This document shows, one piece after another, positions 28,523 through 62,785 of a DNA stretch of 64,000 nucleotides (the first letter of the stretch is position 1; every line of letters starts with the position of its first letter). The notes below the pieces were generated by a model. That model worked only from the letters and a program-made list of their open reading frames with translations, searched no databases and was not told where the DNA came from. The DNA comes from an uncultured Rickettsiales bacterium (GTDB taxonomy: Bacteria; Myxococcota_A; UBA796; UBA9615; CAYRNR01), in the NCBI GenBank assembly GCA_964542165.1, contig CAZITQ010000015.1, forward strand, positions 3,047 through 67,046, read 5' to 3'. The position numbers and the translations under genes were made by a program.

Positions 28523-30721
28523 TCACGGAAGGGTGCGCGCCACCCGAAATCCGAGCTCGTCCGACTGGGACTCCGGTGCCAGACGCGTCCGGTGGGCGAG
28601 GCGCAGGTAGGACGGCACGGAGAGGTGGGTGCCCCCGCGGCTGACGCGACGGGTACCCGTCTCCGGGCCGACGGGATCGGTCACCGGCGAGTTGCCCAGA
28701 TCGGCCACGTAGACGTCCCAAACCCACTCCGAGGCGTTGCCGGTCATGTCGTACAGGCCGAACCCGTTGGGAAGAAAGCTGGCCGCCGGGGCCAGGTCCG
28801 CGTGGCCGTCCTCGCAATCGAAGGGGGTCAGCGCGGGGCTCTGGGCCACGGCGGTGGCGTCGGCGACGTTGCCGTAGAGGCAGAGTTCGGCGTCGCGGCT
28901 GGTACCCGCGTAGCGGTCGTCTCCGCCGGCGCGGGCGGCGTACTCCCACTCGGCCTCGGTGGGTAGCCGGTAGCCGGTGGCCTCGTGGCGCCACTCCACG
29001 AACGAGCCCTTGATCACGTAGGCGGCGGCCAGCCCCTCGGCCTTGGAGAGCCGATTGCAGAACGTCACCGCGTCGTACCAGCTCACCCGGGTGGCCGGCA
29101 GCGACCGCTGGAGGGTGCGGGGCGGGCGCTTTGCCATCACCTCGGCCCACAGCCCGCGGGTCACCTCCCTGTCCCCCAGCAAAAAGGCGCTCCCCAGGGT
29201 GACCTCGTGGAGGTTCTCGTCATCCGCCCGACCGGCCTCGCCCTTCGGGCTGCCCATGGGGAAGCTGCCTCCGGGGATCGGCGTCATGGCGAGCCCGAAT
29301 CGGGATGTGACCTCCCCCTGCCAGCGGGCCACGTCCTCGGGGTCGAAGGTCTCGATCGGGGTGGCCTCGCCCGTTGCTCCGTCCACCGGCCGCGTCTCGC
29401 CGCCGGTGGTCCGCCCCGCCTCGCGCAGCGCCCACCCGCCCCCGGCCACCAGCGCGATTCCCGCCAGTCCGACGACCGCGATCGCCACCGCCCGCCAGGG
29501 GCTGGGTCCCGGCCGCTCGAGCCCGTCTTCGGTCTCCAGGCTGGTGAGGCGACCCTGGGCGGGTACCGGGCCCTGCAGCGCGGCGGGCGAGGGCCCGTCG
29601 GCGGGGGTGGAACCCGAGGGCGTCGGCTCCCGTTCGCCGGCCCCGGTGGGCATGTAGTCCATGGTCCGGTCCACCGGGGAGAACTCCCCGGGGGAGGGCC
29701 CGTCACCCCCGGCGTCGTCCGCCGGCGGCCGGAGGGTCTGCTCTTCGGGACCGGCGGCCGAGGCCAGGTTGGGGGTAGCCTCGCCGGAGTCCGCGCCCAC
29801 CTCGCCATCGCCCATCCACCCGGAGACCCACCCGCCGAGTTCGAGATCGCCCGCCAGCCGGTCCCGCACCGCGAGGAGGTCCCCCCGCATCGCCGCGGCG
29901 TCCGGGTAGCGGTCCATGGGGTCCTTCTGAAGGGCCCTTGCGACCACCGGCGCCATCTCGGGCCATCGCCCCTCGACCCGCATCAGCGCCTCGGAAGTGT
30001 CGGCGCGGGCGATGCGGCCGAGCACATGGAACAGCTGGGTGCACTCGAACACCACCTCGCCGGTGATCATCTCGGCGATCACCGAGCCGAGGCTGAACAG
30101 GTCCGACCGGTGGTCCAGGGGCAGACCATCCACCTGCTCGGGGCTCATGTAGACCGGCGTGCCCTTGGTGATGCTCGCCGTGGTCGTGTGGAACAGGTTG
30201 ACCTGTGACTTGGCGATCCCGAAGTCCATGATCTTGACCCGCCCCTCGCGGGTGATCATCACGTTCCCCGGTTTCAGGTCCCTGTGGACCAGGCGCAGGT
30301 CGCGGCCGTCCTCGTCCACGGCGGCGTGGGCGTACTCGAGGCCGTCGCAGATCTGGATCGCGATCTCCACGACCGGTGCGAGGGGGAGAGGGCCCCGATC
30401 CCGGGCTCGCCGCAGGACCCTGCTCAAGGTGTGACCGTCCACGAACTCCATGGACAGCACGTAGACGTCGTCGATGTTCTCGAACTCGTAGATCTCGACC
30501 AGGTTCTTGTGGCGCAGGTACCCCCCGACCCGGGCCTCGTTGATCAGCGCCTGGACCAGCTTCTCCTCCCTCGAGACGTGGGGCAGGATCTGCTTGAGGG
30601 CGACCTCCTTGCGGAAGCCCATCGCACCTGCGCGGACGGCGCGGAACACCCGGGCCATGCCGCCGGTGCCCACCTCCTCCAGCAGCACGTACTTGCCCAG
30701 TCTTCGCGTCTCGGGGTCCAC
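28523..30721 (-). CDS. Ser/Thr protein kinase fused to a C-terminal FGE-sulfatase (SUMF1/formylglycine-generating-enzyme-like) domain via a TM segment
   Basis: Kinase motifs GTGGMARVF, HRDLKPGN, DFGIAK, SPEQ. Pro/Gly-rich linker and a hydrophobic helix (AVAIAVVGLAGIALVAGGGW). The FGE-sulfatase region reads RVSWYDAVTFCNRLS, YRLPTEAEWEYAARAG, GLYDMTGNASEWVWD, RVSRGG. Confidence 0.9.
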   Translation of the reverse strand: MDPETRRLGKYVLLEEVGTGGMARVFRAVRAGAMGFRKEVALKQILPHVSREEKLVQALINEARVGGYLRHKNLVEIYEFENIDDVYVLSMEFVDGHTLSRVLRRARDRGPLPLAPVVEIAIQICDGLEYAHAAVDEDGRDLRLVHRDLKPGNVMITREGRVKIMDFGIAKSQVNLFHTTTASITKGTPVYMSPEQVDGLPLDHRSDLFSLGSVIAEMITGEVVFECTQLFHVLGRIARADTSEALMRVEGRWPEMAPVVARALQKDPMDRYPDAAAMRGDLLAVRDRLAGDLELGGWVSGWMGDGEVGADSGEATPNLASAAGPEEQTLRPPADDAGGDGPSPGEFSPVDRTMDYMPTGAGEREPTPSGSTPADGPSPAALQGPVPAQGRLTSLETEDGLERPGPSPWRAVAIAVVGLAGIALVAGGGWALREAGRTTGGETRPVDGATGEATPIETFDPEDVARWQGEVTSRFGLAMTPIPGGSFPMGSPKGEAGRADDENLHEVTLGSAFLLGDREVTRGLWAEVMAKRPPRTLQRSLPATRVSWYDAVTFCNRLSKAEGLAAAYVIKGSFVEWRHEATGYRLPTEAEWEYAARAGGDDRYAGTSRDAELCLYGNVADATAVAQSPALTPFDCEDGHADLAPAASFLPNGFGLYDMTGNASEWVWDVYVADLGNSPVTDPVGPETGTRRVSRGGTHLSVPSYLRLAHRTRLAPESQSDELGFRVARTLP

Positions 30722-36739: not shown

Positions 36740-37283
36740 CGGGGCGAATGATGGAGGGGAGGCGCGGATCGGTCAAGGAGCTGACTGTGGCCGGCGGCAG
36801 CGAACGGGGGGCTGGTGAACGGGAGGGGGCTGCGGTCGGGTTGTTCGGCCGTGCTTCCCCGGTGCCGGCGGTTGGCCGAACATCGAGTGCGAGCGCCGGC
36901 CGCCCTGGTCGCCGAGGGGGGGGCGCTCCGCCTCTCTGTCGCTGCGTCGCCGAGTCCTCGCGGTGATCGGAACCCAGATTGCGAACGAGTCCCGGACGCA
37001 AGTGGGATGCAGCGCCTTTTACGTTCGGCTACGGCCCCCCCCCACGGCTCTGGGTCGGGCGGCCTCGGACTGGAGGCGGGGGCCGCCGGCGGACGAGGTC
37101 CGCGCTGGACGAGAGTACGAACATGGAGTGCTCGACGCACCTGGGGGCGGCGTCATTGCTCCGCTCGCGCCGGGGAGGGGGCGATTTGGGTACGGAATCC
37201 GGGGTGGCACAGGCAGCTCGCTGCCTGTGGGGAGCGGCGCCATCGGTGCGCGCGCGTCGATGTGGGAACGAGGGAGTGGAAAA

Positions 37284-37357
37284 TGGAGGCGCCGACCGGA
37301 TTCGAACCGGTGATGGGGGCTTTGCAGGCCCCTGCCTTACCACTTGGCGACGGCGCC
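37284..37357 (-). tRNA. tRNA-Cys (GCA), CCA encoded
   Basis: Reverse complement reads GGCGCCG TC GCC AAGTGGTAA GGC A GGGGC CTGCAAA GCCCC CATC ACCGG TTCGAAT CCGGT CGGCGCC T CCA. Clean cloverleaf, anticodon GCA, discriminator U73 as expected for tRNA-Cys. Confidence 0.93.
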
Positions 37358-37589
37358 CCGGAGAGGGTGATCCGAGCGGATCGGACAGAGGATACGCCTG
37401 GAAGTCCCGCTGTCAAGGGTCCGGAGGAGCGGTGGGTTGCACGGGTGCCGGTGAGGTCCGCGGGGTTGCACCCATGCCCGTCGCGACCGGAGGCCAGCCG
37501 CCGCCGACCGTACTCGACACCCCTGCGATGCGATATCAACGGGCTGGTAGACTGACACTCCGTGGACGCACGCGGGGATCGACCTGACG

Positions 37590-39563
37590 ATGGATGTCAT
37601 CTTCCGAAAGATGCCCTTCGCTCACCCGCCAGAGCCGGGCGAAGGGGAGCTTCTACTGTGTCCCGAGCCCCGTCATGCCGACCGGCGGCGCGCCCTTTCC
37701 CGCTTGATCGTCGAACGCGGCGTGGAGACGTTGCTCGAGGGACCGGGGCAGATTCGCGCACTGGTCGTGGCCTGCTACCCGACCCTGGATGACATGCTGG
37801 CTTGCGAACTCGCCCAGCGGTGTCTGGCGGGCGGGGACAACCCCGCGGGGATAGCTCCCTTCACGACCTACGCCGCCCTTCTTCGGGAGGGACACACTCC
37901 CGACGGCGTTCCTGCCCTGAACTCATTGCAAGGCGTGTTTCAGGCCATCTCCTCTCTACATCCACCCGAGGCGGACGATCCGGACAGCTGGCCCCCCTTC
38001 CTGGAGGCCTGGGCTCCCCTGGCGGAGGCCCTGTTCCAGGGGGCCGAGACGGGGGCGGATCCGTTTCACGACGATCTGGTCTCCAGCCATCCGGAGTTGC
38101 AGCGGGCCCTCGCGTTCCTCGCCCAGGACAAGGACGTGTTCCTCCAGGACGTGGCCCGCGGCGAGCGTGTCACCGGGCGGCTCCCCGGCATCGATGGGGA
38201 CGCCACGGCCCTCTTCCTCCGGGAGCCCCGCAGCGCCTTGTTCAAGCTCTGGAGCCGGCGGGAACCCGAGCCCCGTGGAGGAAGTCCGGTCACGCTCCTG
38301 GGCGTCAGCTGGCGCGCGGGACAGTGGACGTTCTCGACGGATCCCGCCCGGAAGATCCCGCTGCTGGAACTTCATGCACGGCTCCAGGAGGCGGAAGACC
38401 TGGCCACCTCCGAGGGCGAGGAGTACCAGGAGTGGTTCGACGGCGCTCCTTTCGACCACACCCTCCTCTCTGGGCCGGAGGACGGCTCGCGGATGGACGA
38501 CGACGCGATCCTGGCTGTGGCACGGGCGTGGCTCGCTCCACCGAGGGAGCAGCCGCGATTTGCCCCACACGGACTGCTCGCAGCCGCCGGCCTCGCGGGC
38601 CTCGCTCTCCTGGTCGGCCTCGCGATCTGGCGACCCTGGAGCGAACCGGATATGCCCCCCGAGCCCGATCCACCCGTGGAGGAGACCCAACCCCTTGGAG
38701 CGGAACCGGTGGATGAGTTCGGGGGGGTCCGAGGGGCTCGTCGGGCGGACGGGAAGACGTCGCCCGAGTTGGGCATCGTCGAGTACGGCAAACAGTACCT
38801 TCTGTTGATCGGCATCAGCGACTACCCGGAGGACAGCGAGTGGTGGGACCTGAAGGGGGTGAGCGCGGACCGGCGGGCTCTCCACAAGGTGCTGACCGAG
38901 CGTTACGTCTTCGACGAGGTAGTCCAGCTCTACGACGAGAGCGCGACCCTGGACGACATCTCCGGAGAGCTCGAGAGGCTAGCCACCCTCACGGGCAACG
39001 AGAACGACAGCCTCCTGATCTACTTCGCCGGGCACGGCTACCACGACCGAATCGCCCAAACCAGCTACTGGATTCCGCACGACGGCGGCCCTGTCTCGTC
39101 CGAGGCCAAGGGCTGGTTGTCCCACGACAAGGTTCAGGGGTACCTGGACACGATGGCGTTCCGTCACGTGTTCGTGATCAGTGACGCTTGCTTCTCGGGC
39201 GTGTTCGTCAAGAAGGGCCGCCAACTCCACGAGCGGACACCGCATGCCCTGGTCGAGGCGTACGGGAAGCGGGCTCGCCAGGCGCTTCTCTCGGGGCTCG
39301 ACGAGCCCGTCGCCGACGCCGATTCCGGGGGTCTGAGCCCCTTCGCCCGCCCCCTGGTGAGCATCCTGCGCGGTCACGGAGGTCGGGTGCTCGACGCGCG
39401 GGACGTGGGCCATCACGTGCGCAAGGCGATGGAGGAGGCGGAGGTACGGCAGACGCCGTTGTTCGACGAGATCCCCAACACCAACCACCTCGACGGCGCC
39501 ACCTACCTCTTCATCCGCCAGGCCCCGGAGGGAGCCTCCCCGCCCGAAGACCTGCACGAGTGA
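37590..39563 (+). CDS. Membrane-anchored caspase-like (peptidase C14) protein with ~325-aa orphan N-terminal domain
   Basis: C-terminal domain reads KQYLLLIGISDY...SLLIYFAGHGYHD...HVFVISDACFSGVF, with the His/Cys dyad in canonical contexts. Single hydrophobic helix GLLAAAGLAGLALLVGLAIW at about residues 328-347. The N-terminal region has no motif I recognise. Confidence 0.8.
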   Translation: MDVIFRKMPFAHPPEPGEGELLLCPEPRHADRRRALSRLIVERGVETLLEGPGQIRALVVACYPTLDDMLACELAQRCLAGGDNPAGIAPFTTYAALLREGHTPDGVPALNSLQGVFQAISSLHPPEADDPDSWPPFLEAWAPLAEALFQGAETGADPFHDDLVSSHPELQRALAFLAQDKDVFLQDVARGERVTGRLPGIDGDATALFLREPRSALFKLWSRREPEPRGGSPVTLLGVSWRAGQWTFSTDPARKIPLLELHARLQEAEDLATSEGEEYQEWFDGAPFDHTLLSGPEDGSRMDDDAILAVARAWLAPPREQPRFAPHGLLAAAGLAGLALLVGLAIWRPWSEPDMPPEPDPPVEETQPLGAEPVDEFGGVRGARRADGKTSPELGIVEYGKQYLLLIGISDYPEDSEWWDLKGVSADRRALHKVLTERYVFDEVVQLYDESATLDDISGELERLATLTGNENDSLLIYFAGHGYHDRIAQTSYWIPHDGGPVSSEAKGWLSHDKVQGYLDTMAFRHVFVISDACFSGVFVKKGRQLHERTPHALVEAYGKRARQALLSGLDEPVADADSGGLSPFARPLVSILRGHGGRVLDARDVGHHVRKAMEEAEVRQTPLFDEIPNTNHLDGATYLFIRQAPEGASPPEDLHE

Positions 39564-39636: not shown

Positions 39637-42123
39637 GTGACCACGGACCGGACCATCGACCTCACGGTCAGGCGGGGATTCCCCCAGCCAATCGCCGGTG
39701 CCTGGCACCGGGTCGCGGTGGCCTCCTCGGACGCGGAGCGGATGCGGCACGCCACGGCCGCGCTCGAGGTAATCCTCCGGACGCTGTCGTCGATGGCGCT
39801 GGCCGACTACCTGCGGGGAGGGCCCGTTCCCCGGGTAGAAGAGGCTCTGGCGCCTCTGTCTCGACCGTCCCTGGGCCACTGGGCCCAGCTCCTGCGGGTG
39901 CTGATCCATGCCCTCGGGGATCGCAACGAACCACAACCGTTCCTCCCCGACCTCGTCGGGTGGTACCGGACGCCCACGGGCCGGCCCACCGCCGAGGCGC
40001 GACGGATCGACGACCTGATCGCGTTGCGCAACCGTGTGGCCCACGACGGACCGTCCACCAGCCCCGAGGACACCGCGGCACAACTGAAGCACCTGATGGA
40101 GGAGAGCCGAGCCCTCCTCAGGGGTCTGCGTTGGCTCGCGGGGTACCGACTCGTTCGCGTCCTGAGCCAGCAACCCCTGCGACAGGGGGGGACCGAGGGC
40201 AAGATCCAGGTGTATGCGGGGGCCGAAGCGCTTCCGGAACCGCGCAAGGTCCGCTGGGACGCCCGGCTGATCCATCAGGTCGTGTACCTGGTCGAACCCG
40301 GCGGCAGGGAGGCGCTGGAGGTCTGCCCGTTCCTGCAGGTCCTCCACGACGAGGCGACACGCCAGGAACGCCTGTTCCTGCTGAGAAAGGTACGTCGCGG
40401 CAAGGAGATCGAGCTCGTCTCCGACGCGACCGGAGCCCGGACCGTCGGCGGCGTGCCCGGAGACGACGGACAGATCCCGTTCGACCGCTGGCTGGACATG
40501 CGCAGCGAGATCGACCTCTGGCAGCCCAACGCCGCTCCCGACGGCGGACTCGCTGCTCCCGAATGGGCCGTGGACGCCTCGTCCAACGAGCTTCTCGACG
40601 ATCGATTCGAGGTCCTGGAACTCCTCGGTGAGGGGGGGATGTCCCAGGTCTACCGGGTCCGCGATCGCTGGTTCGACGACGAGGTCGCCCTCAAGATCCT
40701 CCGCTCGGCCCTCTCCGACGACGAGGCGTTCCGCGAGCGCTTCCGCCGGGAGGCTCGAACCATGGCGGGCCTCCAGCACGAACACGTGCTGGCGTTGCAG
40801 GACGTGGGGCAGCTCGGCGACGGTCGCCAGTTCCTGCGCATGCCCGTGGTTCCCGGCGGGACCCTCGAAGACCGGATCCGGCCCGGTGGTGTCGGGGAAT
40901 CCGAGGTACGCGAGCTGGCGAGCCAGATGCTGGCCGCACTCGAGTACCTCCACGGTCGGGGGATCATCCACCGGGACGTCAAGCCCTCGAACTTCCTGCT
41001 CGACACCAACGGGGGCATCAAGCTCGCCGACTTCGGGATCGCCCTGGGGCCGGACGACCTGAGGCTCACGCGTACCCTGGAGCGTCTGGGCTCGCTGGCG
41101 TACGCGTCGCCAGAACAGAGGCTCGGCAAGGCCCTGTCGGATCGGTCGGACGTGTACAGCCTCTCGGTGGTCCTGCACGCCCTGGTGACCGGCGAGGAGG
41201 CCACGGACCAGCCAGGGGAGGCGCTCGAGGGAGAGCTGGGAGAGCTGATCCGCCGGATGGCCTCCCGTGCCCCGTCGAAACGCCCCTCGGCTCGCGAGGC
41301 TCGCTTGTTGCTCACGGAGGATCTGGAGTTCGAGGGCCCGGAAAAGCGCTCCCCGTCCCATCCGGCCGTCTCCGATCCACGCGGGGGGACAGCCAACGAA
41401 GCCGTAGGCGCGTCCACCGGGCCTGCGGGACGCTCAGCCCGTCGTCGCTCGCTGGGGTGGGTCGTTGTTATCGCCGCCACCGTGGCGCTGGTGGTCGCCG
41501 CGATCGTTGGTCCCCGCGGGCGCAACCGGACCGAAACCAGCCCCATCAACGACGAGGAGGCCGCGGCCATCTCGGAGGGGGCCCCCTGGACCCTGACCTT
41601 CCATATGGCGGAGGTGGGCAGCAGGGAGCTTCGCGCCCTCTCGCCGGGCGGTGAGAACACCGTTGAGAAGCCCAACTGGACCGGCCACTTCGTGGACCTC
41701 GAGGATTCCCAGGGCCAGCGGCTCTCCCTGCGGCCGCGCCCGGAGCTAGCGGGGGCGCCGTCGCTGTGGCTCGGCGACGACGAGGTGCATCTCCACTGGT
41801 GTCGCTGCATAGACGGCTGTGAGGCCGGCGAGGAAACGTCCTGCTATGACTTGATGGCGCAGATCCGTGTCGAGGTCGTCGCGTCCAGAATGGAGGCGCC
41901 CCAGCTCGAACCCGCCCTCGGGGTGGGCGAGCTCGTCCTCCTGGAGCGGGAGCAGGTGCGGACCCTGCCCGGGGAAACGACGAGCGAGAACGTCACGAAT
42001 GTCGCACCGCGGGGTACGCACCGTCTGAGGGCGCTGGTCGGGTGTGTCGATCCGGTTGTCGCGACCGCTGGGAACTGTGAAGCCCCAGGCCACACCATCG
42101 AACTCGACTGGAGCGTGCCGTGA
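39637..42123 (+). CDS. Transmembrane Hanks-type Ser/Thr kinase with N-terminal helical RNxxxH (HEPN-like) domain and extracytoplasmic C-terminal domain
   Basis: GTG start. Kinase motifs GEGGMSQVY, VALKIL, HRDVKPSN, DFGIA, SPEQ at about residues 324-580. TM helix LGWVVVIAATVALVVAAIVG at about 606-625. The N-terminal four-helix-like region contains LRNRVAHDG (codons 40027-40044). Confidence 0.85.
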   Translation: MTTDRTIDLTVRRGFPQPIAGAWHRVAVASSDAERMRHATAALEVILRTLSSMALADYLRGGPVPRVEEALAPLSRPSLGHWAQLLRVLIHALGDRNEPQPFLPDLVGWYRTPTGRPTAEARRIDDLIALRNRVAHDGPSTSPEDTAAQLKHLMEESRALLRGLRWLAGYRLVRVLSQQPLRQGGTEGKIQVYAGAEALPEPRKVRWDARLIHQVVYLVEPGGREALEVCPFLQVLHDEATRQERLFLLRKVRRGKEIELVSDATGARTVGGVPGDDGQIPFDRWLDMRSEIDLWQPNAAPDGGLAAPEWAVDASSNELLDDRFEVLELLGEGGMSQVYRVRDRWFDDEVALKILRSALSDDEAFRERFRREARTMAGLQHEHVLALQDVGQLGDGRQFLRMPVVPGGTLEDRIRPGGVGESEVRELASQMLAALEYLHGRGIIHRDVKPSNFLLDTNGGIKLADFGIALGPDDLRLTRTLERLGSLAYASPEQRLGKALSDRSDVYSLSVVLHALVTGEEATDQPGEALEGELGELIRRMASRAPSKRPSAREARLLLTEDLEFEGPEKRSPSHPAVSDPRGGTANEAVGASTGPAGRSARRRSLGWVVVIAATVALVVAAIVGPRGRNRTETSPINDEEAAAISEGAPWTLTFHMAEVGSRELRALSPGGENTVEKPNWTGHFVDLEDSQGQRLSLRPRPELAGAPSLWLGDDEVHLHWCRCIDGCEAGEETSCYDLMAQIRVEVVASRMEAPQLEPALGVGELVLLEREQVRTLPGETTSENVTNVAPRGTHRLRALVGCVDPVVATAGNCEAPGHTIELDWSVP

Positions 42124-45100
42124 GATCCGCGGTCGGCGCCCTCTACCTCGCACTGCTCGCCGTGGTTCTGGTGATGGCGGACGATGCGGTCGCCGAGGAC
42201 CTCGACGGGGACACAGTGGACGACAGCGAGGACGCCTGCCCCCCCGGATCGGGTACCCACGGAGATACCGTGAAGTTCAACGGCTGCCCCGGAAAGGCGG
42301 TCTACCGGGCGGCATCGCTCGCGAAGGATTTTCCCCGGGCGAGGGTGAGCGTCCGCGGCGAGTCGCCCAAGCCGGCGGCCGTTGGGGTGGGCCTTGACCC
42401 GGCCAAGCCCGGAGAGGCCCGCCGAATCCGCTTCCACGCCTTTCTCGACGAGGGGGATCACTCCCGGCGCTGGTCCGCCGCCGAGCTGGCCGGGCCTCGA
42501 TATCGCGAAGGGGGGATCGAGCTGGACTTCAAGCCGGCGGCCCCGCCGGAACACATCGTGGTGATCGTCGACGGCGGCGGTGCAGAGGTGACCGTCGACG
42601 GCGAACCCGCAGTCGACCTGACCCGAGGAGGACGGGGTGTGCGGCACACCCGTGCCGGGGGGGAGAGGCGCCTCGACGTGGCCGTGGCGACACCGGATGG
42701 CGAGGCCACCTGTGCGGTGGAGCTGGAGCGCGGCTCAGCCAGGCGCCTCGAGGGGCAGTGCCTGCTGTCCTGGGGCGGACGGGCCGACGAGCTGGAGGTC
42801 CGATTCTCGCCCCAGATGCTCGAGGGATCTCATGTCTCGATGGACCGGCTCCGGGAATACGACGAGGAACTCGACAACAGTCCACAAGTGACCTACGTCG
42901 TCACGGTTCAGGCCCTGTGGGCCCCGGAGGACGACTCGGCTCCCGCACGGGCCCAGGCCGAGGAACTCGCCGCGCAGGGTTGCACCGCTGCGGAGGGGCT
43001 CGGGGGCATGTTGGGCCAGTGGTGGGAGGCACGTCGGCAGCGCGAGAATCTGATCCAGGAGCGGGCAGCACTGCTCAAGGAACGCAAGCAGTCCTTCGGC
43101 GATTCCGCCTCGTCGATCATGCTCGAGGTCGGATTCGAATCGGACGTCCAGCCCTTCGACGTGCCAGGCTGGCCCCCGGCATGGGCTCGGAGCGGGGCTC
43201 GGAGCGGCGAGCTGGCGGCATTCCACCGGTTGCGGATCGAACGCGCGTACTCCGAGGACGTCCAAGTCATCCGCAACACGTACTCCGCGGCAACGTGGGA
43301 GGCCTCCTCGGGTCTCGCGAATCTCCGGGCAGAACTCCTTCCCCGGTTGCGGGACGCGGCGGAGTGCTCGCCGTCCGCCGCCGACGCTCCGCTGCTCCTC
43401 GAGCTCATGTCGATGCAGCTGGACCAGGCGGACGAGGACTGGTTGGAGGCCTATGACGCGTACGGTGAGCTCGAAGATGCGTTCGATCGTGGGGATATCG
43501 ATACCCTTCCGGAACCGCCCGGGAGGGACTACAGCGCTCTGATCGCGACCGGCGAACGCCTGGTCTCCCTGGAACCCGCCCCCGTCCGCGAGCTCCCCGA
43601 GGCGCTGTGGCTCCTGAGCTTCGCCTATCACGACTCGTTGAGTGACCAGTGGGAGTCGGGCGACGAACGAGCGCTGACGTACTATGAGCGGCTGGCGGCC
43701 CTCGATGGGCCTTCGCACCTGGTCGATGGAGGGCACTTCCTCGCCGGAGACCTGCACTTCGATTCGTATCGCTGGGACGAGGCGATCTCCCACTACGATG
43801 GGATCTTGGACGAACGCGAGTTCGGCCCGTACTTCGAACGGGCGCTGTACAAGAGGGCGTGGGCCAAACTGCGGTTGGGACGGCTCGACGAGGCCGTCGC
43901 GGATTTCGTCGCACTGCACGACCACGCCGAGCAGGCGAGGCTGGCCACCGGCCGGACGACGTTCTGGCAGGGCGAGGCCGAGCGGGCGCTGGCGCTCCTC
44001 CTGTACGAACGAGCGGAGACTCGGTCGGACGCGGCGGGTGAAGCGTTCGCGGAACTCGATCCCGAGACCATGCCTTATGCCGTGGACGTGGCCCAGGAGC
44101 TGGTGGCGCTGTACCTGAAGCTCGGCCGCCGGGAGGCCGCCCTGGCGGGGGAACGCTGGCTCCTGAGCGCGGCGGCGCTGGCTCCCGAGGCGCCGGCGCG
44201 TCAGCGGCGGATCCTGGAGCTGCTCCGGGGCGCCGAGAGCCCTGACGAAGCACAGATCACCCGCGCCATCGAAGGGCTCTGTCTCGACTACCGGCGAGGC
44301 GGCGCCTGGTGGGACGCGAACCGCGGACGGCGGGACGCGGTCGCCGACGCGCAGACCTGGGACAGCCCGGGAACGGATCCGTGCGGTCCGTTGATCCGGG
44401 CGAGGGACGAGGACGAGCGCGCCGAGGCCTACGCACGCGCGGCGGAGTTCCAGGAGGCCCTGCGACATCGGCAACCCCTGGAATCTGCCGCCACGCTCCG
44501 GGCGAGGCGCGTCGAAGCCCTCGTGACGGCGGGCGAGTGGTTCCTCGCCGCCGGGGAGGCACAGGTCCTGGTCGACCGCTCGAACTCGCGGGACGACCTG
44601 GCGGGCAGCCTGGCCCTGCTGGTGCAGGCCCTCCGTGAACCGGCAAGGGAGGAGGTCCGACGGCTGAGGGCCGAAGGGGGGCCGCTCCGGGAATGCGTGG
44701 CGCGCCCGGGACGGCCTGCGGAGTGTCCGTCGGCCGCACCGATGTCGGAACACGCGTATCGCTTCGTGGGTGCAGTCGAGGGGCTCTTGCAACTCCCGCA
44801 ACGGGACCTGCTGCGCGCCCCCGACCACCTGCTCGCGGGCGAGCTGTACCTTCACCACCGGTTGCTCGACGAGGCGCACACGGTCTTCGCGGACCTGGGT
44901 GGCTCGCCCAGCATCGAGGGCATACTCGCGGACGTATATCTGGGCTACGTCCTGTGGATCGCCGGGGACCTTCCACGACTGTACGACCATTGCCGCATGG
45001 CCCTCGAACGCGGCGAGGGCGCGCTCCGTACCGACGACGTGTGGACCGCCGCGCGAGGCGAGATCGCGAGGCTGATGTTCGCGGTCGAGTTGGCCGCCGA

Positions 45101-45542
45101 GGGGGCCGTGGGCACTCCGGATGCGGGATGGGCGTTCGAGGTCCTCGCCCGCCGCTACGGTGCCCTCCACCTCGACGCCACGAGGGCCGTGGTCGTCCTG
45201 GAGGCGCCCCCCGCGCTCCGAGGACGTATCGACACGTACTGGGATGGCCACCCGCTCGCGGGAGACCCCCGCGAGGAGGGACCGTCCGTACGGCTCTTCG
45301 AGGGGGCAACGACCCCGGGGAGCCACACCCTCGCGCTCCAGCTGGATCGGGGCAGCGACAGGATCCAGGCGCCCTACTCGTTCATCTGCGAGGAGGGAGG
45401 GATGACGGTGATCCGGATCCAGGCCACACCTTCCGGTTTCACCTTCCTCGTGGAGTCCGTCCGGGTCGAGGACTTCTACGGCGGGGATCTGGATCCGGAG
45501 ACCCGGGAACTCGCGGCCCCCTTCTTCGAGGGCCTGCTGTAG
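42120..45542 (+). CDS. Large secreted TPR-like repeat protein with thrombospondin-type-3-like acidic motif
   Basis: The GTG start overlaps the kinase stop as GTGA. Signal peptide MRSAVGALYLALLAVVLVMA. Acidic motif DLDGDTVDDSEDACP. TPR-like helices (e.g. YFERALYKRAWAKLRLGRLDEAVADF). Beta-rich C-terminal end. Confidence 0.7.
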   Translation: MRSAVGALYLALLAVVLVMADDAVAEDLDGDTVDDSEDACPPGSGTHGDTVKFNGCPGKAVYRAASLAKDFPRARVSVRGESPKPAAVGVGLDPAKPGEARRIRFHAFLDEGDHSRRWSAAELAGPRYREGGIELDFKPAAPPEHIVVIVDGGGAEVTVDGEPAVDLTRGGRGVRHTRAGGERRLDVAVATPDGEATCAVELERGSARRLEGQCLLSWGGRADELEVRFSPQMLEGSHVSMDRLREYDEELDNSPQVTYVVTVQALWAPEDDSAPARAQAEELAAQGCTAAEGLGGMLGQWWEARRQRENLIQERAALLKERKQSFGDSASSIMLEVGFESDVQPFDVPGWPPAWARSGARSGELAAFHRLRIERAYSEDVQVIRNTYSAATWEASSGLANLRAELLPRLRDAAECSPSAADAPLLLELMSMQLDQADEDWLEAYDAYGELEDAFDRGDIDTLPEPPGRDYSALIATGERLVSLEPAPVRELPEALWLLSFAYHDSLSDQWESGDERALTYYERLAALDGPSHLVDGGHFLAGDLHFDSYRWDEAISHYDGILDEREFGPYFERALYKRAWAKLRLGRLDEAVADFVALHDHAEQARLATGRTTFWQGEAERALALLLYERAETRSDAAGEAFAELDPETMPYAVDVAQELVALYLKLGRREAALAGERWLLSAAALAPEAPARQRRILELLRGAESPDEAQITRAIEGLCLDYRRGGAWWDANRGRRDAVADAQTWDSPGTDPCGPLIRARDEDERAEAYARAAEFQEALRHRQPLESAATLRARRVEALVTAGEWFLAAGEAQVLVDRSNSRDDLAGSLALLVQALREPAREEVRRLRAEGGPLRECVARPGRPAECPSAAPMSEHAYRFVGAVEGLLQLPQRDLLRAPDHLLAGELYLHHRLLDEAHTVFADLGGSPSIEGILADVYLGYVLWIAGDLPRLYDHCRMALERGEGALRTDDVWTAARGEIARLMFAVELAAEGAVGTPDAGWAFEVLARRYGALHLDATRAVVVLEAPPALRGRIDTYWDGHPLAGDPREEGPSVRLFEGATTPGSHTLALQLDRGSDRIQAPYSFICEEGGMTVIRIQATPSGFTFLVESVRVEDFYGGDLDPETRELAAPFFEGLL

Positions 45543-46578: not shown

Positions 46579-47223
46579 ATGGAGTTCAACGCCGAGAAGC
46601 TGCTGATGGACCTCTTCCTCTCGGTGGGCGCCAAGTGGGTGTTGTGGCTGCTCATCGTCCTGTCGGTCCTGCTGGTGGTGATCGTGGTCGAGCGCTTCAT
46701 CTTCTTCATGCGCAACCGCGCGGACTTCACCCGCCTGTCCGTGACGGTCAACGAGCTGATGGCATCGGGGGACCTGGGCAGGTTCCAAAAGGCCATCGAA
46801 CCGTTCACGGGGGTCGAGGCCCTGGTCCTGCGGCGCTCCCTGCAGTCGGTGAGCCGGGGGGCGGAGTCGGTGGAAGAGGTGATGGACGGGGTCCTGTCGA
46901 TGGAGCGGGTGCGGATGGAGCGCGGCCTGACCTTCCTGGGCACGGTCGGCGCCAACGCGCCGTTCATCGGCCTGCTGGGCACCGTGCTGGGCATCATCCG
47001 CGCCTTCAGGGACCTGGCCGGTTCCATCGGAGAGGCCCAGGGGGCGTCGGCGGTGATGGCCGGCCTCTCCGAGGCCCTGGTCGCCACGGCAGCGGGGCTC
47101 TTCGTGGCCATCCCCGCCGTGGTCGCCTACAACTACTTCCAGCGCCATATCAAGGCGGTCATCAGCAACGCGGGGAGCATGAACCGCTTCGTGCTCTCGC
47201 AGATCCGCGGCAACGGGAGCTGA
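46579..47223 (+). CDS. exbB: MotA/TolQ/ExbB proton-channel protein
   Basis: Three TM helices. Conserved C-terminal core LGTVGANAPFIGLLGTVLGII...GLSEALVATAAGLFVAIPAVVAYNYF. Confidence 0.9.
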   Translation: MEFNAEKLLMDLFLSVGAKWVLWLLIVLSVLLVVIVVERFIFFMRNRADFTRLSVTVNELMASGDLGRFQKAIEPFTGVEALVLRRSLQSVSRGAESVEEVMDGVLSMERVRMERGLTFLGTVGANAPFIGLLGTVLGIIRAFRDLAGSIGEAQGASAVMAGLSEALVATAAGLFVAIPAVVAYNYFQRHIKAVISNAGSMNRFVLSQIRGNGS

Positions 47224-47229
47224 CCGACG

Positions 47230-47690
<461 letters not shown>

Positions 47691-47691
<1 letters not shown>

Positions 47692-48542
47692 TGGTCCAGG
47701 GAGGCCAGCTCCGCGTGATCGAGGGCGGCCAGGAGCCGGGCGATCCCGGTCCGGGTGGCGACCAGGCCCCGCAAGAGGAGCGCGCGGCAGCTCCGGTACT
47801 CCCGATCATCCCGCCTCCCAGCTACGCCGCCTTGTGGCTGATCCCCGCCGCGCTGTTCTCGCTGCTCCTCCACGGGGCACTCCTCTGGTTGGCCCTTCGC
47901 GCTCCCGAGCTCATCAGGGAGCGGGAGGACACCATCGTCCAGATGCTGGTGATCGAGACCCCGCCCGAGGTGGAAGAGGTCAAGGAGGTCCTGCCGGAGG
48001 AGGAGCTGCCCGAGGAGTCGACGACGCCCGAGCCCGAGGTCGTCGACTACCAGGACGCCGTGGTCGCCGATGCGCCTCCGCCGGATGCCCAGCCGTCCGA
48101 GGAGCAGCCGGCGGCACCCGTGTTCGGCGTCAGCATGTCGTCGACGGTGTCGGGGGGATCGAGCTGGGGACTTCAGGTGGGCAATACCGTCGCCATCAAG
48201 CCCGAGGACTCGGCGCAGGTGGACGATCCCTCGGACCTGGAGGCCCCCGTGGTGGCCTACCAGTTCATCGAGCGTGAACCGGTGGTGATCAAGCGCTTCG
48301 AACCCCCCTACCCCGACGGACCCAAGCAGGCGGGCATCGAGGGGGACGTGCTGCTCTACCTGACCATCGACCACGACGGCAACGTGACCGAGGCCAAGGT
48401 GGTCCGGGGACCGCACCCCGAGTTGAACGAGGCCGCACGCAAGGCCATGTTCAAGCACCGGTTCAAGCCCGCGATGAAGGGTGGCAAGCCGGTGACCGTC
48501 GAGCGCTTCCCCTACCAGTTCACCTGGATCATCGAGGAGTGA
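47691..48542 (+). CDS. tonB: TonB-family energy transducer
   Basis: The ATG overlaps the exbD stop (TGATG). One TM helix (LWLIPAALFSLLLHGALLWLAL), a Pro/Glu-rich spacer and a C-terminal TonB_C motif set (PPYPDGPKQAGIEGDVLLYLTIDHDGNVTEAKVV...FKPAMKGGKPV). Confidence 0.85.
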
Positions 48543-48601
48543 CCGCCCTGGCGCGTACGCGTGCGCTGGGGGACAATGGGGCGCTCTGGCGCGTCGTGCC
48601 C

Positions 48602-51589
48602 ATGCTGTACCGATTCCTGCCGATCCTGGTGTTCGCGTTGGTCCTCGGGCCGCGTGGCGCGTGGGGGCAGGAGGGGGACCAACCCGACGAAGAGGCGGAA
48701 GACACGGGCAGCGCGCTGCCTGTGGGCGCCGAGGCGGAGCCGGTCTGGCCCGTGCTTCCACCGGTGCTTCTCGAGCGCCCCGATCCCGTCTTCCCCGACG
48801 AAGCCCTCACCGCGGGGATCGAGGGGACGGTCGTGCTCCGCCTGGACGTGGCCGAGGACGGGACCGTCTCTACCGTCACGGTCGTCCGGGACCCGGGTCA
48901 CGGCCTGGCCGCGGCGGCGGAGGTCGCCGCGAGGGCCTCACGCTACGAGCCCGCCAACCAGCGGGGCCTCCCGGTGCCATTCACCGACCTGTACGTCTCC
49001 ATCCCCGTGGACCACCCGGACCTCGAGCCCCCTCCCCTCCCCACCGGCGAGATGGCCGACGTCCTGACCCGGGCGCCCGTGCCCGTGGAGACGCCCGCGG
49101 CGGTCTACCCGAAGGAGCTGAAGGAGGCCGGCGTCGAGGGCGTGGTCCAGATGGAGATCCTCATCGACGCCCGGGGCGAGGTCACCAACGTGCGGCTACT
49201 GGGTTCGGCGGGGAGCGCCTTCGACGTGGCGGCCCGGGACGCGGCCTGGACGTTCCGCTTCGAGCCCGGGTACGCCGGCGACATCCCGGTGCCTGTGAAC
49301 ATCACCTACGACTACGTGTTCGAGATCGAGGAGCAGGTGGTCGAGACGGTCGCCGAGACCGGGTACGACGAGGTGGACCCCGACGGCCCCGAGAACCTCG
49401 TGGGGATCGTCCGCGAGCGGGGCACACGCAACCCGATGCCGGAGGTCGAGGTCCACATCGAGGAGTTCGACCTCAGCGTGACCAGCGGCCCCGACGGGCG
49501 CTTCGCGTTCCGCGGGATCCCGGTGGGCACCTGGCACATCCTGATCCTGGCGCCCGGGTACGAACCCTTCCGGACCGAGGAGGACATCGTCCAGGGTCAG
49601 CTCACCGACGTGATCTACTTCGTGCGGCCCTCACCGGTGGGCCTCAACCGCACGGTGGTCCGGGTCAAGAAGGAGCGCAAGGAGGTCAGCCGGACCACCC
49701 TGACGATCGAGGAGATCCAGCAGGTCGCCGGGACCTTCGGCGACCCCATCAAGGTGGTGCAGAACCTGCCGGGCGTGGCCCGCAGCCCCTTCGACTTCGG
49801 CCTGCTGGTCGTCCGAGGCTCCGGCCCGGAGGACACCGGCGAATACGTGGACGGGATCCGGGTCCCGCTGCTCTACCACTTCGGCGGATTCCGCTCGGTG
49901 ATCACGCCGATCATGATCGACTCCATCGACTTCTACCCCGGCGGGTACAGCGTTCGATGGGGCCGCACCATGGGCGGTGTGATGAACGTCACGACCCGCC
50001 GGGAATGGCCCGACCAGGTCCACGGGCTCGCGCGCGTCGACCTGATCGACGCCGAGGCGGCGCTCATCGGCCCGTTCAAGAAGGACGGCGAGAAGGTCGG
50101 CGGGTTCGGCGTCGCCGGGCGTCGGAGCTACATCGATCTCATGCTCCCGGCCCTGGCGCCGCCCTCGGTGGACCTGACCAACACGGTCCTGCCCCAGTGG
50201 TGGGACGCCCAGATCAAGCTGGCGGTGTCCCCCTCCCCGCGGGTCGACCTGTGGACCTACATCTACGCCAGCGACGACCAGACCTCCACCACCAGCGATC
50301 GGCCCAGCAGCGCCCAGTTCGCCGACTCGGGCGGATTCGCGGGGTTCCGCACCAGCTTCTTCCGGGCCACGGCGGGCGGCGCCCTGCGTCCCCACGACGC
50401 CCTGAATGTGGACTGGACCTTCGGCTACAGCTACGACGCGATCCGGATGTCTCTGGGTACGGCCTTCGGAGGCGGGACGGCGTCGGACTTCTATTACGGC
50501 CGTGCCGAGGCCACCTGGGCCCCCAGGGAATGGGGATCGGCCCACCTGGGGATCGACTACGCCGGCGGCAAGGACCGGTTCGAGATCTTCACCACGGCCA
50601 CCGAGCAGTTGCTGGCCGGTGACCCGACCCAGGAGTCAGAGACCCTGGTGATCGTGGGCGACATCACCGGCCACGCGCCGGCGGTCTACCTCGAAGGGGT
50701 GTTCACCCCGCTGCTGGACGACCGGTTGAAGATCATCCCCGGGATCCGGTTCGACTACTACTGGCTGAAGCAGGGCACGAGCTTCTCCAGTTGGGATCCG
50801 CGGCTGGCCGTGCGGGCCCAGGTGCACAAGAACACGGTGCTCAAGGGCGCCGTCGGCCTGTTCCACCAGAACCCGCAGCCCTGGGAGTTCTTCGAGGGCA
50901 TCGGCAACCCCGACCTGGACCCGGAGAGTTCCCCTCAGGTCGTCGTCGGGATCGAGCAGCAGTTCACCCCCTTCCTCGGCCTGGACGCCCAGTTCTTCTA
51001 CAAGTCGATGGACAACCTGGTCGTCACGGTCTTCGACGAGGTGTCGTCCGCCGAAGACGTGTGGCGCAACGGCGGGGTCGGACGGGTGATCGGCGGCGAG
51101 TTCTTCCTCCGCTGGAAGCCCCACCGCAACTTCATGGGCTGGATCGCCTACACCGTGTCCAACAGCACCCGGCGGGATCAGCCCGGGGACGACTGGTACC
51201 TGTTCGAGTTCGACCAGCCCCACATCCTCGATGTGGTCGCCAGCTACCAGTTCCCCTACGAGATCACCGTCGGGTTCCGGTTCCGACTGGTCTCCGGCAA
51301 CCCCACGACCCCCTACATGGGCGCCATGTTCGACTCGGACGTCCCGGGGTACATGGGCCTGTTCGGGGAGTACAACTCGCGGCGAATGCCCCCCTTCCAC
51401 CAGCTGGACGTTCGCTTCGAGAAGGCGTTCATCTTCCGCCGCTGGCGGCTCCAGGCCTACCTGGAGATCATGAACCTCTACAACCGCCAGAACCCGGAGT
51501 TCGAGATCTACAACTTCGACTACACGGAGAAGGACGCCCTCAACGGATTGCCCTTCATCCCCAACCTCGGCCTGAGGGCGGAATTCTGA
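48602..51589 (+). CDS. TonB-dependent receptor-like outer-membrane protein with two N-terminal TonB_C-like modules and a CarboxypepD_reg-like domain
   Basis: Signal peptide MLYRFLPILVFALVLGPRGAWGQ. TonB_C-like 1 reads PVFPDEALTAGIEGTVVLRLDVAEDGTVSTVTVV...YEPANQRGLPVP. TonB_C-like 2 reads AVYPKELKEAGVEGVVQMEILIDARGEVTNVRLL...FEPGYAGDIPVP. Carboxypeptidase-regulatory-like segment VSGPDGRFAFRGIPVGTWHILILAPGYEP. Plug segment GDPIKVVQNLPGVARS...LVVRGSGPEDTGEYVDGIRV. Long beta-barrel ending ...NLGLRAEF. Confidence 0.85.
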   Translation: MLYRFLPILVFALVLGPRGAWGQEGDQPDEEAEDTGSALPVGAEAEPVWPVLPPVLLERPDPVFPDEALTAGIEGTVVLRLDVAEDGTVSTVTVVRDPGHGLAAAAEVAARASRYEPANQRGLPVPFTDLYVSIPVDHPDLEPPPLPTGEMADVLTRAPVPVETPAAVYPKELKEAGVEGVVQMEILIDARGEVTNVRLLGSAGSAFDVAARDAAWTFRFEPGYAGDIPVPVNITYDYVFEIEEQVVETVAETGYDEVDPDGPENLVGIVRERGTRNPMPEVEVHIEEFDLSVTSGPDGRFAFRGIPVGTWHILILAPGYEPFRTEEDIVQGQLTDVIYFVRPSPVGLNRTVVRVKKERKEVSRTTLTIEEIQQVAGTFGDPIKVVQNLPGVARSPFDFGLLVVRGSGPEDTGEYVDGIRVPLLYHFGGFRSVITPIMIDSIDFYPGGYSVRWGRTMGGVMNVTTRREWPDQVHGLARVDLIDAEAALIGPFKKDGEKVGGFGVAGRRSYIDLMLPALAPPSVDLTNTVLPQWWDAQIKLAVSPSPRVDLWTYIYASDDQTSTTSDRPSSAQFADSGGFAGFRTSFFRATAGGALRPHDALNVDWTFGYSYDAIRMSLGTAFGGGTASDFYYGRAEATWAPREWGSAHLGIDYAGGKDRFEIFTTATEQLLAGDPTQESETLVIVGDITGHAPAVYLEGVFTPLLDDRLKIIPGIRFDYYWLKQGTSFSSWDPRLAVRAQVHKNTVLKGAVGLFHQNPQPWEFFEGIGNPDLDPESSPQVVVGIEQQFTPFLGLDAQFFYKSMDNLVVTVFDEVSSAEDVWRNGGVGRVIGGEFFLRWKPHRNFMGWIAYTVSNSTRRDQPGDDWYLFEFDQPHILDVVASYQFPYEITVGFRFRLVSGNPTTPYMGAMFDSDVPGYMGLFGEYNSRRMPPFHQLDVRFEKAFIFRRWRLQAYLEIMNLYNRQNPEFEIYNFDYTEKDALNGLPFIPNLGLRAEF

Positions 51590-53820: not shown

Positions 53821-54681
53821 ATGCGCGGTTGGCCCTTGCTGCTGACGCTGCTGTTGACCATCGGTCTGATGGCTCCCGCCTACGGGGCGCCTCGGGGCGA
53901 CGATGACGATGACGAGGGCGGTACCACCGTCGTCACATCGCGGGGGCCGGAGAAGAAGGGGCTGCAGGTCCGCTCCAAATTCTTCCGGAAGAAGGGGCGT
54001 GTCGAGATCACGCCCAACTTCGGGTACATCACCAACAACGAGTTCAACCAGGACATGTCCGCTGGACTCGACGTGGCGATCCACCTCTCCGAGCGCTTCG
54101 CCATCGAGATCGGCGGCCAGTACGCCTTCCTCGGCGCCACCAACCAGAAGGATCTGGCGGCGGCGGTGCTCTCGCTGACCGACCCCAACATGCTCGAGGC
54201 GACCGACCCGGGGGTCTTCGCCCACGTGGGCGTTCTCTGGAGCCCCATGTACGGGAAGATCAACCCGATGGGGATGGCGGTCATCAACCTCGACTTCTTC
54301 TTGGCCCTCGGGCTCGGCTACGAGTACGAGGAGGTCGAGATCCTGCGGATGGACTGGGGCACGGGCACCGGGATGGTGGACAACAAGTTCCAGAACCATC
54401 TGATCCCGCTCCACCTGGGCGTGGGGATGAAGATCTTCGCCTCGCGCGGATTCAGCATCCGCATCGACGGTCGGTTCTACCTGACCATCGACCAGATCCT
54501 GGACTTCAAGGATCCCCACAGCGCGCAGGCCAACCGGAACCTGCTCAACGACAATCCGTACACCAATCGGCTGGACTGCGGCGTGAACTCCAGCGCCCAG
54601 TGCATCACCACCCTCAACAACACCTTCATCGTCTCCGTCGGTGCCAGCATCTGGGCGCCCAAGATGAAGTCCGATGACTAG
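53821..54681 (+). CDS. GltA/GltB (NfsA/NfsB)-type outer-membrane beta-barrel protein, copy 1
   Basis: Signal peptide MRGWPLLLTLLLTIGLMAPAYGA, an acidic stretch, then KFFRKKGRVEITPNFGYITNNEF... and a beta-strand pattern typical of the myxobacterial GltA/B barrel family. Paralogous to the next gene. Confidence 0.75.
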   Translation: MRGWPLLLTLLLTIGLMAPAYGAPRGDDDDDEGGTTVVTSRGPEKKGLQVRSKFFRKKGRVEITPNFGYITNNEFNQDMSAGLDVAIHLSERFAIEIGGQYAFLGATNQKDLAAAVLSLTDPNMLEATDPGVFAHVGVLWSPMYGKINPMGMAVINLDFFLALGLGYEYEEVEILRMDWGTGTGMVDNKFQNHLIPLHLGVGMKIFASRGFSIRIDGRFYLTIDQILDFKDPHSAQANRNLLNDNPYTNRLDCGVNSSAQCITTLNNTFIVSVGASIWAPKMKSDD

Positions 54682-54694
54682 GGGAGGTAGAGCC

Positions 54695-55555
54695 GTGCGG
54701 AATTCGAACATGACCGAGCCCACCCGCTTCCTGCTCCCCGCCATCGCCCTGCTGGCCATGGCCCTGGCGCCCTGCTGGGCGGCCAAGGCGGCGCCGACGC
54801 CGGACGTGTCGTCGCTGGTCGACATGTCGTTGCTGGACATGGCCACCGCCGAACAGGCGCGGGACGACGACGAGGACGACGAGGAGCGGAGCGACTCCCG
54901 CAGCGCCACCGGCCGCAAGCGAATCATCAAGGTCGTCCAGCGCCGTCACTTCCTCAAGCTGGGCCGGGTCGAGGCGACCATCCCCTCCATCGGGATGGTG
55001 ACCAACGACCCCTTCCTGCGCCGCATCCTGTTCGCCGGCCGGTTCGAGGTCCACATGACCGAGATCTCGAGCATCGGCGCCTACCTGGCCTTCTCCCCGA
55101 ATCTGGGGGAGAGCGACCTGAAGCAGCTCACCAGCCAGATGCAGACCCGCAAGGAGGTCGTGCCCGACATCTCGCGGATCATGTTCGTGGGCATCGTGGA
55201 CGTGGGTTTCTCCCCGATCTTCGGGAAGGTCGAGCTGGGGACCACCCGGATCATCAACTACGACATCTACTTCTCCGCCGGTGCCGGCGTCCTCTACACC
55301 AAGGACGACGAGGAGCTGGTCAAGGGTGGCGACGAGAAGTACCGCAGTCAGATCCATCCGGTGACGAGCCTCTCGTTCGGGTTCCGGATCGCGTTCAACG
55401 AGTGGTTCGGCGTCCGACTCGAAGGTCGCCTGCTCACCCACATCGAGCAGGTCGACCGCGCCGAGGGGCTGAACCTGGAGATGAAGAACAACTTCGCCGT
55501 GCAGTTCGGGCCGAGCTTCTTCCTGCCCCCGAAGATGAAGCAGCTGGCCCACTGA
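54695..55555 (+). CDS. GltA/GltB (NfsA/NfsB)-type outer-membrane beta-barrel protein, copy 2
   Basis: GTG 54695 lies 7 nt after GGGGAGG (54681-54687); the track ORF starts at ATG 54674. Signal LLPAIALLAMALAPCWAAKA, an acidic stretch, then RRHFLKLGRVEATIPSIGMVTNDPF... parallel to copy 1. Both copies are 286 aa with the chosen starts. Confidence 0.75.
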   Translation: MRNSNMTEPTRFLLPAIALLAMALAPCWAAKAAPTPDVSSLVDMSLLDMATAEQARDDDEDDEERSDSRSATGRKRIIKVVQRRHFLKLGRVEATIPSIGMVTNDPFLRRILFAGRFEVHMTEISSIGAYLAFSPNLGESDLKQLTSQMQTRKEVVPDISRIMFVGIVDVGFSPIFGKVELGTTRIINYDIYFSAGAGVLYTKDDEELVKGGDEKYRSQIHPVTSLSFGFRIAFNEWFGVRLEGRLLTHIEQVDRAEGLNLEMKNNFAVQFGPSFFLPPKMKQLAH

Positions 55556-55664
55556 GACGAGCGAGGGAGGACGGCCGAGCGCCGTCCGGTGCGAACGAGA
55601 CGGAGTAACGATCCCGGCGGACGGGCGTCGAGACGCCGCGCCCGCCGGAGAAACGGGAAGAGTG

Positions 55665-57584: not shown

Positions 57585-57632
57585 CGCCCTCTCGGGACGG
57601 ACAGAAACGACCCCATCGCCTGCTGGAGGACG

Positions 57633-60854: not shown

Positions 60855-60871
60855 GGCAGAGGAGACCAGCC

Positions 60872-62785
<1,914 letters not shown>

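Follow-up and report, generated by a model that had tools for sequence, protein, structure and literature searches.

Gene and protein layout

We describe a single gene in a 64,000-nucleotide stretch of contig CAZITQ010000015.1 from an uncultured Rickettsiales bacterium (positions 3,047 to 67,046 of the contig; Myxococcota_A in GTDB), and the whole of this stretch is called the window below. The gene is the forward-strand open reading frame (ORF) 39637..42123, and its translation is a single-pass protein of 828 amino acids (aa), with an N-terminal module bearing an R-N-x3-H (RNxxxH) motif ahead of a receptor-type Ser/Thr kinase. All coordinates are positions in the window, and residues are numbered on the 828-aa protein. 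The start codon is GTG, and the start is credible because homologues begin at the same point (MSSRRIIDTTVRR, MSTNRIIDLTVKE). The GC content at third codon positions (GC3) is 0.85, and the GC by codon position is typical of real genes (window ~69% GC). The identical gene was called on 6 metagenome contigs, the longest shown being 66.4 kb (ENA SUTE22-1_SAMN10231913 scaffold_1153).

Five parts follow one another on the + strand. The helical domain, residues 1-170 (39637..40146), has nine helices in the AlphaFold2 model (predicted local distance difference test, pLDDT, 96.1; predicted template modelling score, pTM, 0.91) and is, with its conserved residues, the HEPN-like part of the module. The beta-rich domain, residues 171-300 (40147..40536), was modelled with ~11 strands (pLDDT >96), and the linker at residues ~300-320 is low-confidence. 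The Hanks-type Ser/Thr kinase domain, residues ~324-590 (40606..41406), leads to a transmembrane helix predicted at residues 608-624 (41458..41508; WVVVIAATVALVVAAIV) from sequence reading and a hydropathy scan. The C-terminal ~200-aa cysteine-containing domain (41509..42120) is presumed to be an extracytoplasmic sensor.

The kinase domain is matched by Pkinase on residues 324-524 (Pfam, E=1.3e-41, 143 bits against a cut-off of 31.7) and by a PknB-type model (NCBIfam, E=3.6e-65). The kinase motifs are all present, namely the G-loop at 331, VALK at 350, HRD at 445, DFG at 465 and SPE at 491, and the domain looks like an active member of the Hanks type. The first-pass annotation, made by a model from the letters of the DNA, had proposed an active-looking kinase in a transmembrane protein, and the catalytic motifs together with the single predicted membrane helix bear this out. 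The C-terminal domain has no Pfam, NCBIfam or PADLOC match and is conserved in the closest orthologue, P0003 (46.6% identity across the full-length protein), while other relatives bear FGE-sulfatase, WD40, TPR or PAP2 domains in its place. The 828-aa protein has no N-terminal signal sequence. We infer the usual receptor-kinase topology, with the module and kinase in the cytoplasm and the C-terminal domain outside.

A protein family defined by the N-terminal module

When 1.84 billion representative proteins were scanned exhaustively with HMMER, the module proved to define a family: 489 representative clusters matched at E<=1e-3, and the stricter limits of E<=1e-10 and E<=1e-30 left 170 and 82. 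With few exceptions the match sits at the N-terminus of its protein and spans query residues ~1-300, and the helical lobe (1-170) and the beta lobe (171-300) always co-occur. A word-indexed protein search had given one relative from the single sequence and none from the profile; it was the exhaustive representative scan that revealed the family. The family is found mainly in Myxococcota. A genome-collection scan for related loci, for which a 7-sequence alignment was used, placed them in metagenome-assembled genomes (MAGs) labelled Myxococcota or Deltaproteobacteria, Thermoanaerobaculia, Anaerolineae and Planctomycetota. One Myxococcota MAG assembly carries the module twice, on separate contigs, the window contains it once, and no relatives turned up in the viral contig scan.

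Residues 1-320 alone had no match in Pfam, NCBIfam, PADLOC or PDB-sequence searches, and the public names that we looked up for family proteins read 'serine/threonine protein kinase' only. For the beta domain, the consensus had no Pfam match and Foldseek gave insignificant barrel matches only. Other identities were tried and rejected: an FHA-like beta domain (no FHA profile or fold match), a DinB-like helical bundle (E=0.01-0.05 only, no His triad) and a death-like or EAD adaptor (no fold match). The ~300-aa domain pair has a confidently predicted structure and is covered by no Pfam, NCBIfam or PADLOC model, and its definition, with 489 representative clusters, would stand even if the module were not an RNase.

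The usual family architecture is the module, an active-looking Hanks kinase, a membrane helix and an extracytoplasmic domain. Pfam detected Pkinase after the module in 44 of the 50 closest full-length relatives, and FGE-sulfatase (9/50), PAP2, TPR and WD40 were additional domains in this set. One member (P0075) has an added FHA domain. Two members (P0001 and P0083) have no kinase and consist of the module, a membrane helix and an outside domain, the module being the sole cytoplasmic domain. In P0086 (locus L031 1862-5401), the module (residues 549-829, with RNKKRH at 669) lies directly before a PglZ domain (residue 848 onward). The kinase-less membrane members and the PglZ fusion suggest that the module can be an output domain on its own. 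The module of P0086 is preceded by ~550 unassigned residues, and its truncated upstream gene has no Pfam match.

Position and conservation of the RNxxxH motif

The candidate catalytic Rx4H motif is R131-N-R-V-A-H136 (40027..40044, + strand). We built AlphaFold2 models on a 49-sequence alignment for residues 1-320 (pLDDT 95.1, pTM 0.93) and residues 1-172 (pLDDT 96.1), with helices at 4-14, 19-27, 32-58, 65-75, 79-95, 104-110, 119-137, 143-163 and 165-169. In both models RNRVAH closes helix 119-137 at its C-terminal end, and loop 138-142 and then the long helix 143-163 come after it. The first-pass annotation had read long helices by eye for residues ~20-165 and had put LRNRVAH at a helix junction, and the models reproduced both readings. 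The codons it gave, 40027-40044, are right for R131 to H136 and leave out L130 (40024-40026), the first residue of LRNRVAH (130-136).

One occurrence of RNxxxH is not significant by itself, since 0.6 are expected by chance in the ~18,400 coding residues of the window (0.027 in 828 aa) and two are observed; the signal is in the conservation. The only other RNxxxH of the window is RNPGWH at residue 127 of ORF 36815-37555 (+ strand, 246 aa), which was called as a gene in the source assemblies and has no family match; its motif is consistent with chance.

Among near-full-length domain copies, R131 was kept in 118 of 123, N132 in 107 and H136 in 109, with the exact R-x4-H spacing. In 49 sequences mutually <45% identical, R131 is invariant and N132 and H136 are each kept in at least 90%, and the family consensus around the motif is L-V-x-L-R-N-x-x-x-H-G. 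Conservation of R131 and H136 among homologues, on which the earlier proposal depended, was thus confirmed, and because the motif is a family hallmark the observation is far stronger than that annotation could know. Near-invariant residues in the helical domain also include P16, P18, A20, W23, R48, D57, Y58, P77, G80, R96, F102, W109 and W166, and beyond residue 170 they are R171, W207, L211, Y217 and L227, together with G195 and P231, which are invariant. E44 (E/D in 103/123) and D57 (D/E in 113/123), both in helix 32-58, are candidates, from the alignment only, for the conserved acidic or polar residue that HEPN domains have in the N-terminal hairpin, close to the motif.

The R-N-H triad is intact in 74 of the 78 members with a kinase found by phmmer, versus 30 of the 45 others, with the limit that the phmmer calls are incomplete and Pfam later detected kinases that phmmer missed. 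A subgroup (P0046, P0047, P0052, P0063, P0065, P0068, P0073 and P0074) has kept R131 and lost both N132 and H136. Its members have no kinase by phmmer, are ~670-735 aa long where complete, and most have a predicted membrane helix. From their sequences, the module in them has probably become inactive or taken on another role, and both the triad loss in this kinase-less subgroup and the better retention in kinase-bearing members fit an enzyme family with inactive paralogues.

Relationship of the helical lobe to HEPN domains

In the 2013 HEPN census (PMC3710099), the HEPN fold is a four-helix up-down bundle, with Rx4-6H placed at the end of core helix-3 or the start of the loop to helix-4 and an insert expected between helices 2 and 3. 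The family has a conserved Rx4-6H of this kind, in the R-N-x3-H form often seen, and by secondary-structure order alone (AlphaFold2) the motif occupies the HEPN position, with the helical elements at 65-110 as a possible counterpart of the expected insert.

The two best Pfam matches of the family consensus were HEPN_Swt1 (E=0.0044) and HEPN_RiboL-PSP (E=0.0076), with HepT-like (E=0.09) and HEPN_MAE_28990 (E=0.15) lower, all of them sub-threshold. These weak HEPN matches all align residues ~111-162 to the C-terminal helix-3/helix-4 end of the profile. When 49 members were scanned singly against Pfam, 14 weak matches fell in five HEPN families (RiboL-PSP 9, MAE_28990 2, HepT 1, Swt1 1 and Abi_C 1), and no non-HEPN family had more than 3. 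In PADLOC, 8 of the 10 weakly matched families contain a HEPN domain (RTasHEPN, several CARF_HEPN models, Csx1/Csm6).

We also compared the family with Csm6, using T. thermophilus Csm6 (TTHB152) and TTHB144 from pTT27; a homologue search returned 3 Csm6 relatives. Against this small, makeshift alignment, hhalign put motif on motif and helix-4 on helix-4 (P=0.085, covering the motif and helix-4 only). The family profile against the single Csm6 or TTHB144 sequences gave 0.2-0.4% probability, which is meaningless.

Several results weigh against a HEPN assignment. HEPN_Swt1 scored 17.7-17.9 bits against a cut-off of 27.5 and RiboL-PSP 16.6-17.6 against 28.4, and no HEPN model reached its threshold. 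The R131A/N132A/H136A consensus lost every HEPN match, and a reversed sequence likewise had none, so the profile similarity restates the motif in a helical setting and is not independent evidence. NCBIfam searches with the 49 members detected no HEPN enrichment, with a single Cas13e match at E=0.044, and profile searches of PDB sequences returned no HEPN protein, only designed helical proteins, the DnaK lid and other noise of this kind. Searched with Foldseek against PDB and BFVD, the confident models gave nothing at E<=0.001. For the helical domain the best matches were generic up-down bundles (vinculin tail, FAT domains, sensor four-helix bundles) with a template modelling (TM) score of <=0.38, and HepT ranked 14th (E=0.94, TM 0.35). 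The two-domain model against PDB gave at best E=0.019 and TM <=0.17, to proteins that combine a helical domain and a beta-barrel (flavohemoglobin, NOX, EF-Tu, STAT).

The HEPN RNase-like site proposed by the first-pass annotation therefore stands in part: the signature and its position hold, while the profile and fold checks on the module gave no threshold-level profile match and no significant structural match in PDB or BFVD. From the sequence and model evidence, we put membership of the helical lobe in the HEPN superfamily at roughly even odds or slightly better.

Favoured function and its alternatives

To our knowledge, HEPN RNases coupled to a kinase have been described only in eukaryotes, where Ire1 serves the unfolded-protein response and RNase L serves interferon defence. 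Our favoured reading, tentatively held with a probability of about 40%, is that a divergent HEPN-type RNase forms the N-terminal part of this receptor kinase and becomes active when receptor and kinase dimerise. The first lobe (~170 aa) would be a divergent HEPN-type metal-independent endoribonuclease, with R131-N132-x3-H136 as the putative catalytic residues, and two protomers would be required to build one active site. A signal at the extracytoplasmic domain, possibly with a co-translated secreted TPR-like partner (see Genomic context), would dimerise or cluster the receptor; the kinase domains would trans-autophosphorylate, the N-terminal modules would be brought together and RNA cleavage would be switched on, with growth arrest or regulated RNA decay as the outcome. 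This would be the logic of Ire1 and RNase L, arrived at separately and with the domains in the opposite order.

Two further points speak against this function. An Ire1-like rigid coupling is not implied, because the ~130-aa beta domain and the linker separate the module from the kinase, and the related loci inspected showed no conserved neighbour connected with RNA or its repair. The wider proposal, in which a large bacterial sensor family couples an extracytoplasmic signal via a Hanks kinase to a built-in HEPN endoribonuclease, as an independent counterpart of Ire1 and RNase L and a new family of HEPN domains for which a beta-domain partner is obligatory, seems to us rather doubtful. If the module is an RNase, bacteria with large kinomes would own a receptor-to-RNA-cleavage pathway, which would be a new output class for bacterial Ser/Thr kinase signalling, a clear case of convergent design and a tractable system for the study of dimerisation-gated RNases.

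The alternative that survives best, somewhat unlikely in our estimate, is that the module is a non-catalytic regulatory or docking domain, whose conserved basic/polar surface (R48, R96, R131, N132, H136, R171 and others) binds a phosphorylated ligand. Nucleotides and second messengers could be the ligand, as could a phospho-Thr segment in the kinase or in one of its substrates, and the module would tune the kinase or recruit substrates, with the RNxxxH likeness either convergent or left from a HEPN derivative that is inactive and only binds. Where bacterial Hanks kinases have N-terminal extensions, these commonly serve regulation, the many conserved arginines suit phosphate binding, and the subgroup without N132 and H136 retains the fold. 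Neither its fold nor its profile ties the module significantly to a catalytic HEPN family, and non-catalytic, ligand-binding HEPN domains are described in PMC3710099. However, the triad is kept at ~87-96% across sequences <45% identical, which is more typical of a catalytic site, it is best kept in the kinase-bearing members, and some proteins with the module have no kinase for it to regulate.

Improbable, to a greater degree, is that the module is another kind of enzyme or effector with its own helical-bundle-plus-beta fold, acting on nucleotides or DNA or as a phosphodiesterase in stress, cell death or anti-phage response, controlled in some proteins by the fused kinase and in others by PglZ. 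Both lobes lack a match among solved structures and predicted viral ones. In P0086 the module is fused to PglZ, a BREX-type phosphodiesterase/nuclease domain (PMC12839542). Conflict-type genes are sometimes nearby (a caspase in the window, a TIR gene beside P0019), and the kinase domain resembles PADLOC defence kinases (PD-T4-6, mad6) at E ~1e-61. However, the PADLOC and NCBIfam kinase matches reflect generic Hanks similarity, far below the cut-offs (130 bits versus 460 for MADS6), the neighbourhoods are not conserved, there is no copy on viral contigs, and the family, with two copies in one MAG assembly, behaves like ordinary expanded myxobacterial receptor kinases. That the motif arose by chance in an ordinary helical linker and serves no specific function is hardly credible: the chance expectation of 0.6 per window proteome and the second, unrelated RNxxxH fit such an origin, but the triad is conserved through a family of 489 clusters and the model is confident and well packed rather than a linker.

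Comparison with Ire1, RNase L and other known systems

With Ire1 and RNase L the protein shares a Hanks-type kinase domain and a helical domain bearing R-N-x3-H in one polypeptide. As in Ire1, the chain is predicted to cross the membrane once, which puts the sensor opposite the kinase and the candidate RNase, both of them in the cytoplasm, and by analogy it is plausible that dimerisation would build a composite RNase site. The differences are in the layout: here the module is N-terminal to the kinase, whereas KEN lies directly C-terminal to the kinase or pseudokinase, and a ~130-aa beta domain and linker intervene, leaving ~150 residues between the module's helical part and the kinase. According to the 2013 census (PMC3710099), KEN is a circularly permuted HEPN, listed as eukaryotic only. 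In our module, unlike KEN, the motif is near the C-terminal end of the domain, in the canonical HEPN position, and there is no permutation. Pfam searches gave no KEN or Ribonuc_2-5A match at E<=1, or at E<=10 for the consensus.

Since the module is N-terminal, the beta domain intervenes and KEN is not matched, the comparison is an analogy only. By its sequence, the 828-aa protein is not a homologue of Ire1 or RNase L, and any similarity is convergent. The bacterial, inverted Ire1/RNase L-like arrangement that the first-pass annotation suggested was found as far as the parts go (kinase, R-N-x3-H module and membrane helix in one protein) and fails as homology. In our full-text literature searches we met no account of such a fusion between a kinase and a HEPN domain in bacteria. 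The places in the 2013 HEPN census (PMC3710099) that mention kinases give no bacterial kinase fusion of this sort, and the 2026 BREX domain survey (PMC12839542) does not describe the module in PglZ or PglW.

Among the HEPN families, Swt1-like (PF18731), RiboL-PSP (PF18735), HepT/DUF86 (PF01934) and MAE_28990 (PF18737) share with the module a hydrophobic-x-x-hydrophobic-R-N-x3-H-G segment, a loop and a long helix in register. The module differs in scoring 13-18 bits against cut-offs of 23-28, with matches that vanish without R, N and H, and in its larger helical domain (~170 aa, nine helices), always joined to the beta domain. The Csm6/Csx1 CARF-HEPN proteins offer the likeness of a HEPN RNase governed by a fused sensor domain, with weak PADLOC matches (E 0.002-0.06), but the module protein has no CARF domain and no CRISPR context, and the statistics are insignificant (P=0.085).

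The order of kinase, membrane helix and extracytoplasmic domain is that of bacterial receptor-type Hanks kinases (PknB-like, and myxobacterial ones with FGE-sulfatase, WD40 or TPR). These normally begin with the kinase domain, whereas this family puts the conserved 300-aa module first. The window has a second Hanks kinase, encoded at 28523-30721 (- strand), with Pkinase at residues 10-271, a C-terminal FGE-sulfatase domain and no N-terminal module, which provides an internal comparison. As for defence kinases (MADS MAD6, BREX PglW, PD-T4-6, Stk2), the protein falls outside these groups: it scored 130.6 bits against 460 for MAD6 and 83.8 against 990 for PglW, in the kinase region only, and the window contains none of the defence-kinase partner genes.

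Genomic context

The gene downstream (42120..45542, + strand) overlaps the kinase stop by 4 bp and encodes a 1140-aa protein with a signal-peptide-like N-terminus and weak TPR/YfiO matches. The closest orthologue, P0003, has the same 4-bp overlap with a 1187-aa homologue (L025 10406-13969; 27% identity, E=1.5e-50), and the downstream gene is retained only there. From this arrangement, the 1140-aa protein is likely co-translated and probably a real partner of the kinase, and perhaps acts with the extracytoplasmic domain.

In 20 related loci searched with tblastn, the caspase and TPR genes of the window are absent. The contexts of P0023, P0019, P0004 and P0086 have nothing in common, P0019 being the member adjoined by the TIR gene. 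The distant members lie in unrelated neighbourhoods, and the protein therefore behaves as a self-contained unit.

The caspase gene (37590-39563, + strand) ends 73 bp upstream of the kinase gene and is not conserved beside the module relatives. Its 657-aa product consists of an N-terminal region of ~330 aa with no family match, a hydrophobic helix at ~330-348, a Pro-rich linker and the caspase domain (Peptidase_C14, E=3e-15), and it weakly matches an 'EACC1-associated' caspase model.

Further along the window, 46579-51589 (+ strand) carries ExbB, ExbD and TonB genes and then a gene whose 1016-aa product combines two stretches of TonB_C with CarboxypepD_reg, Plug and an outer-membrane barrel, an unusual TonB_C-plus-receptor fusion. 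At ~54000-62000 the GC content falls to 0.63-0.65 and the AT skew climbs to 0.2-0.27. In the large genes 55662-57584 and 57633-60854, the GC content is ~0.34 at second codon positions and GC3 is ~0.96, hence an unusual amino-acid composition.

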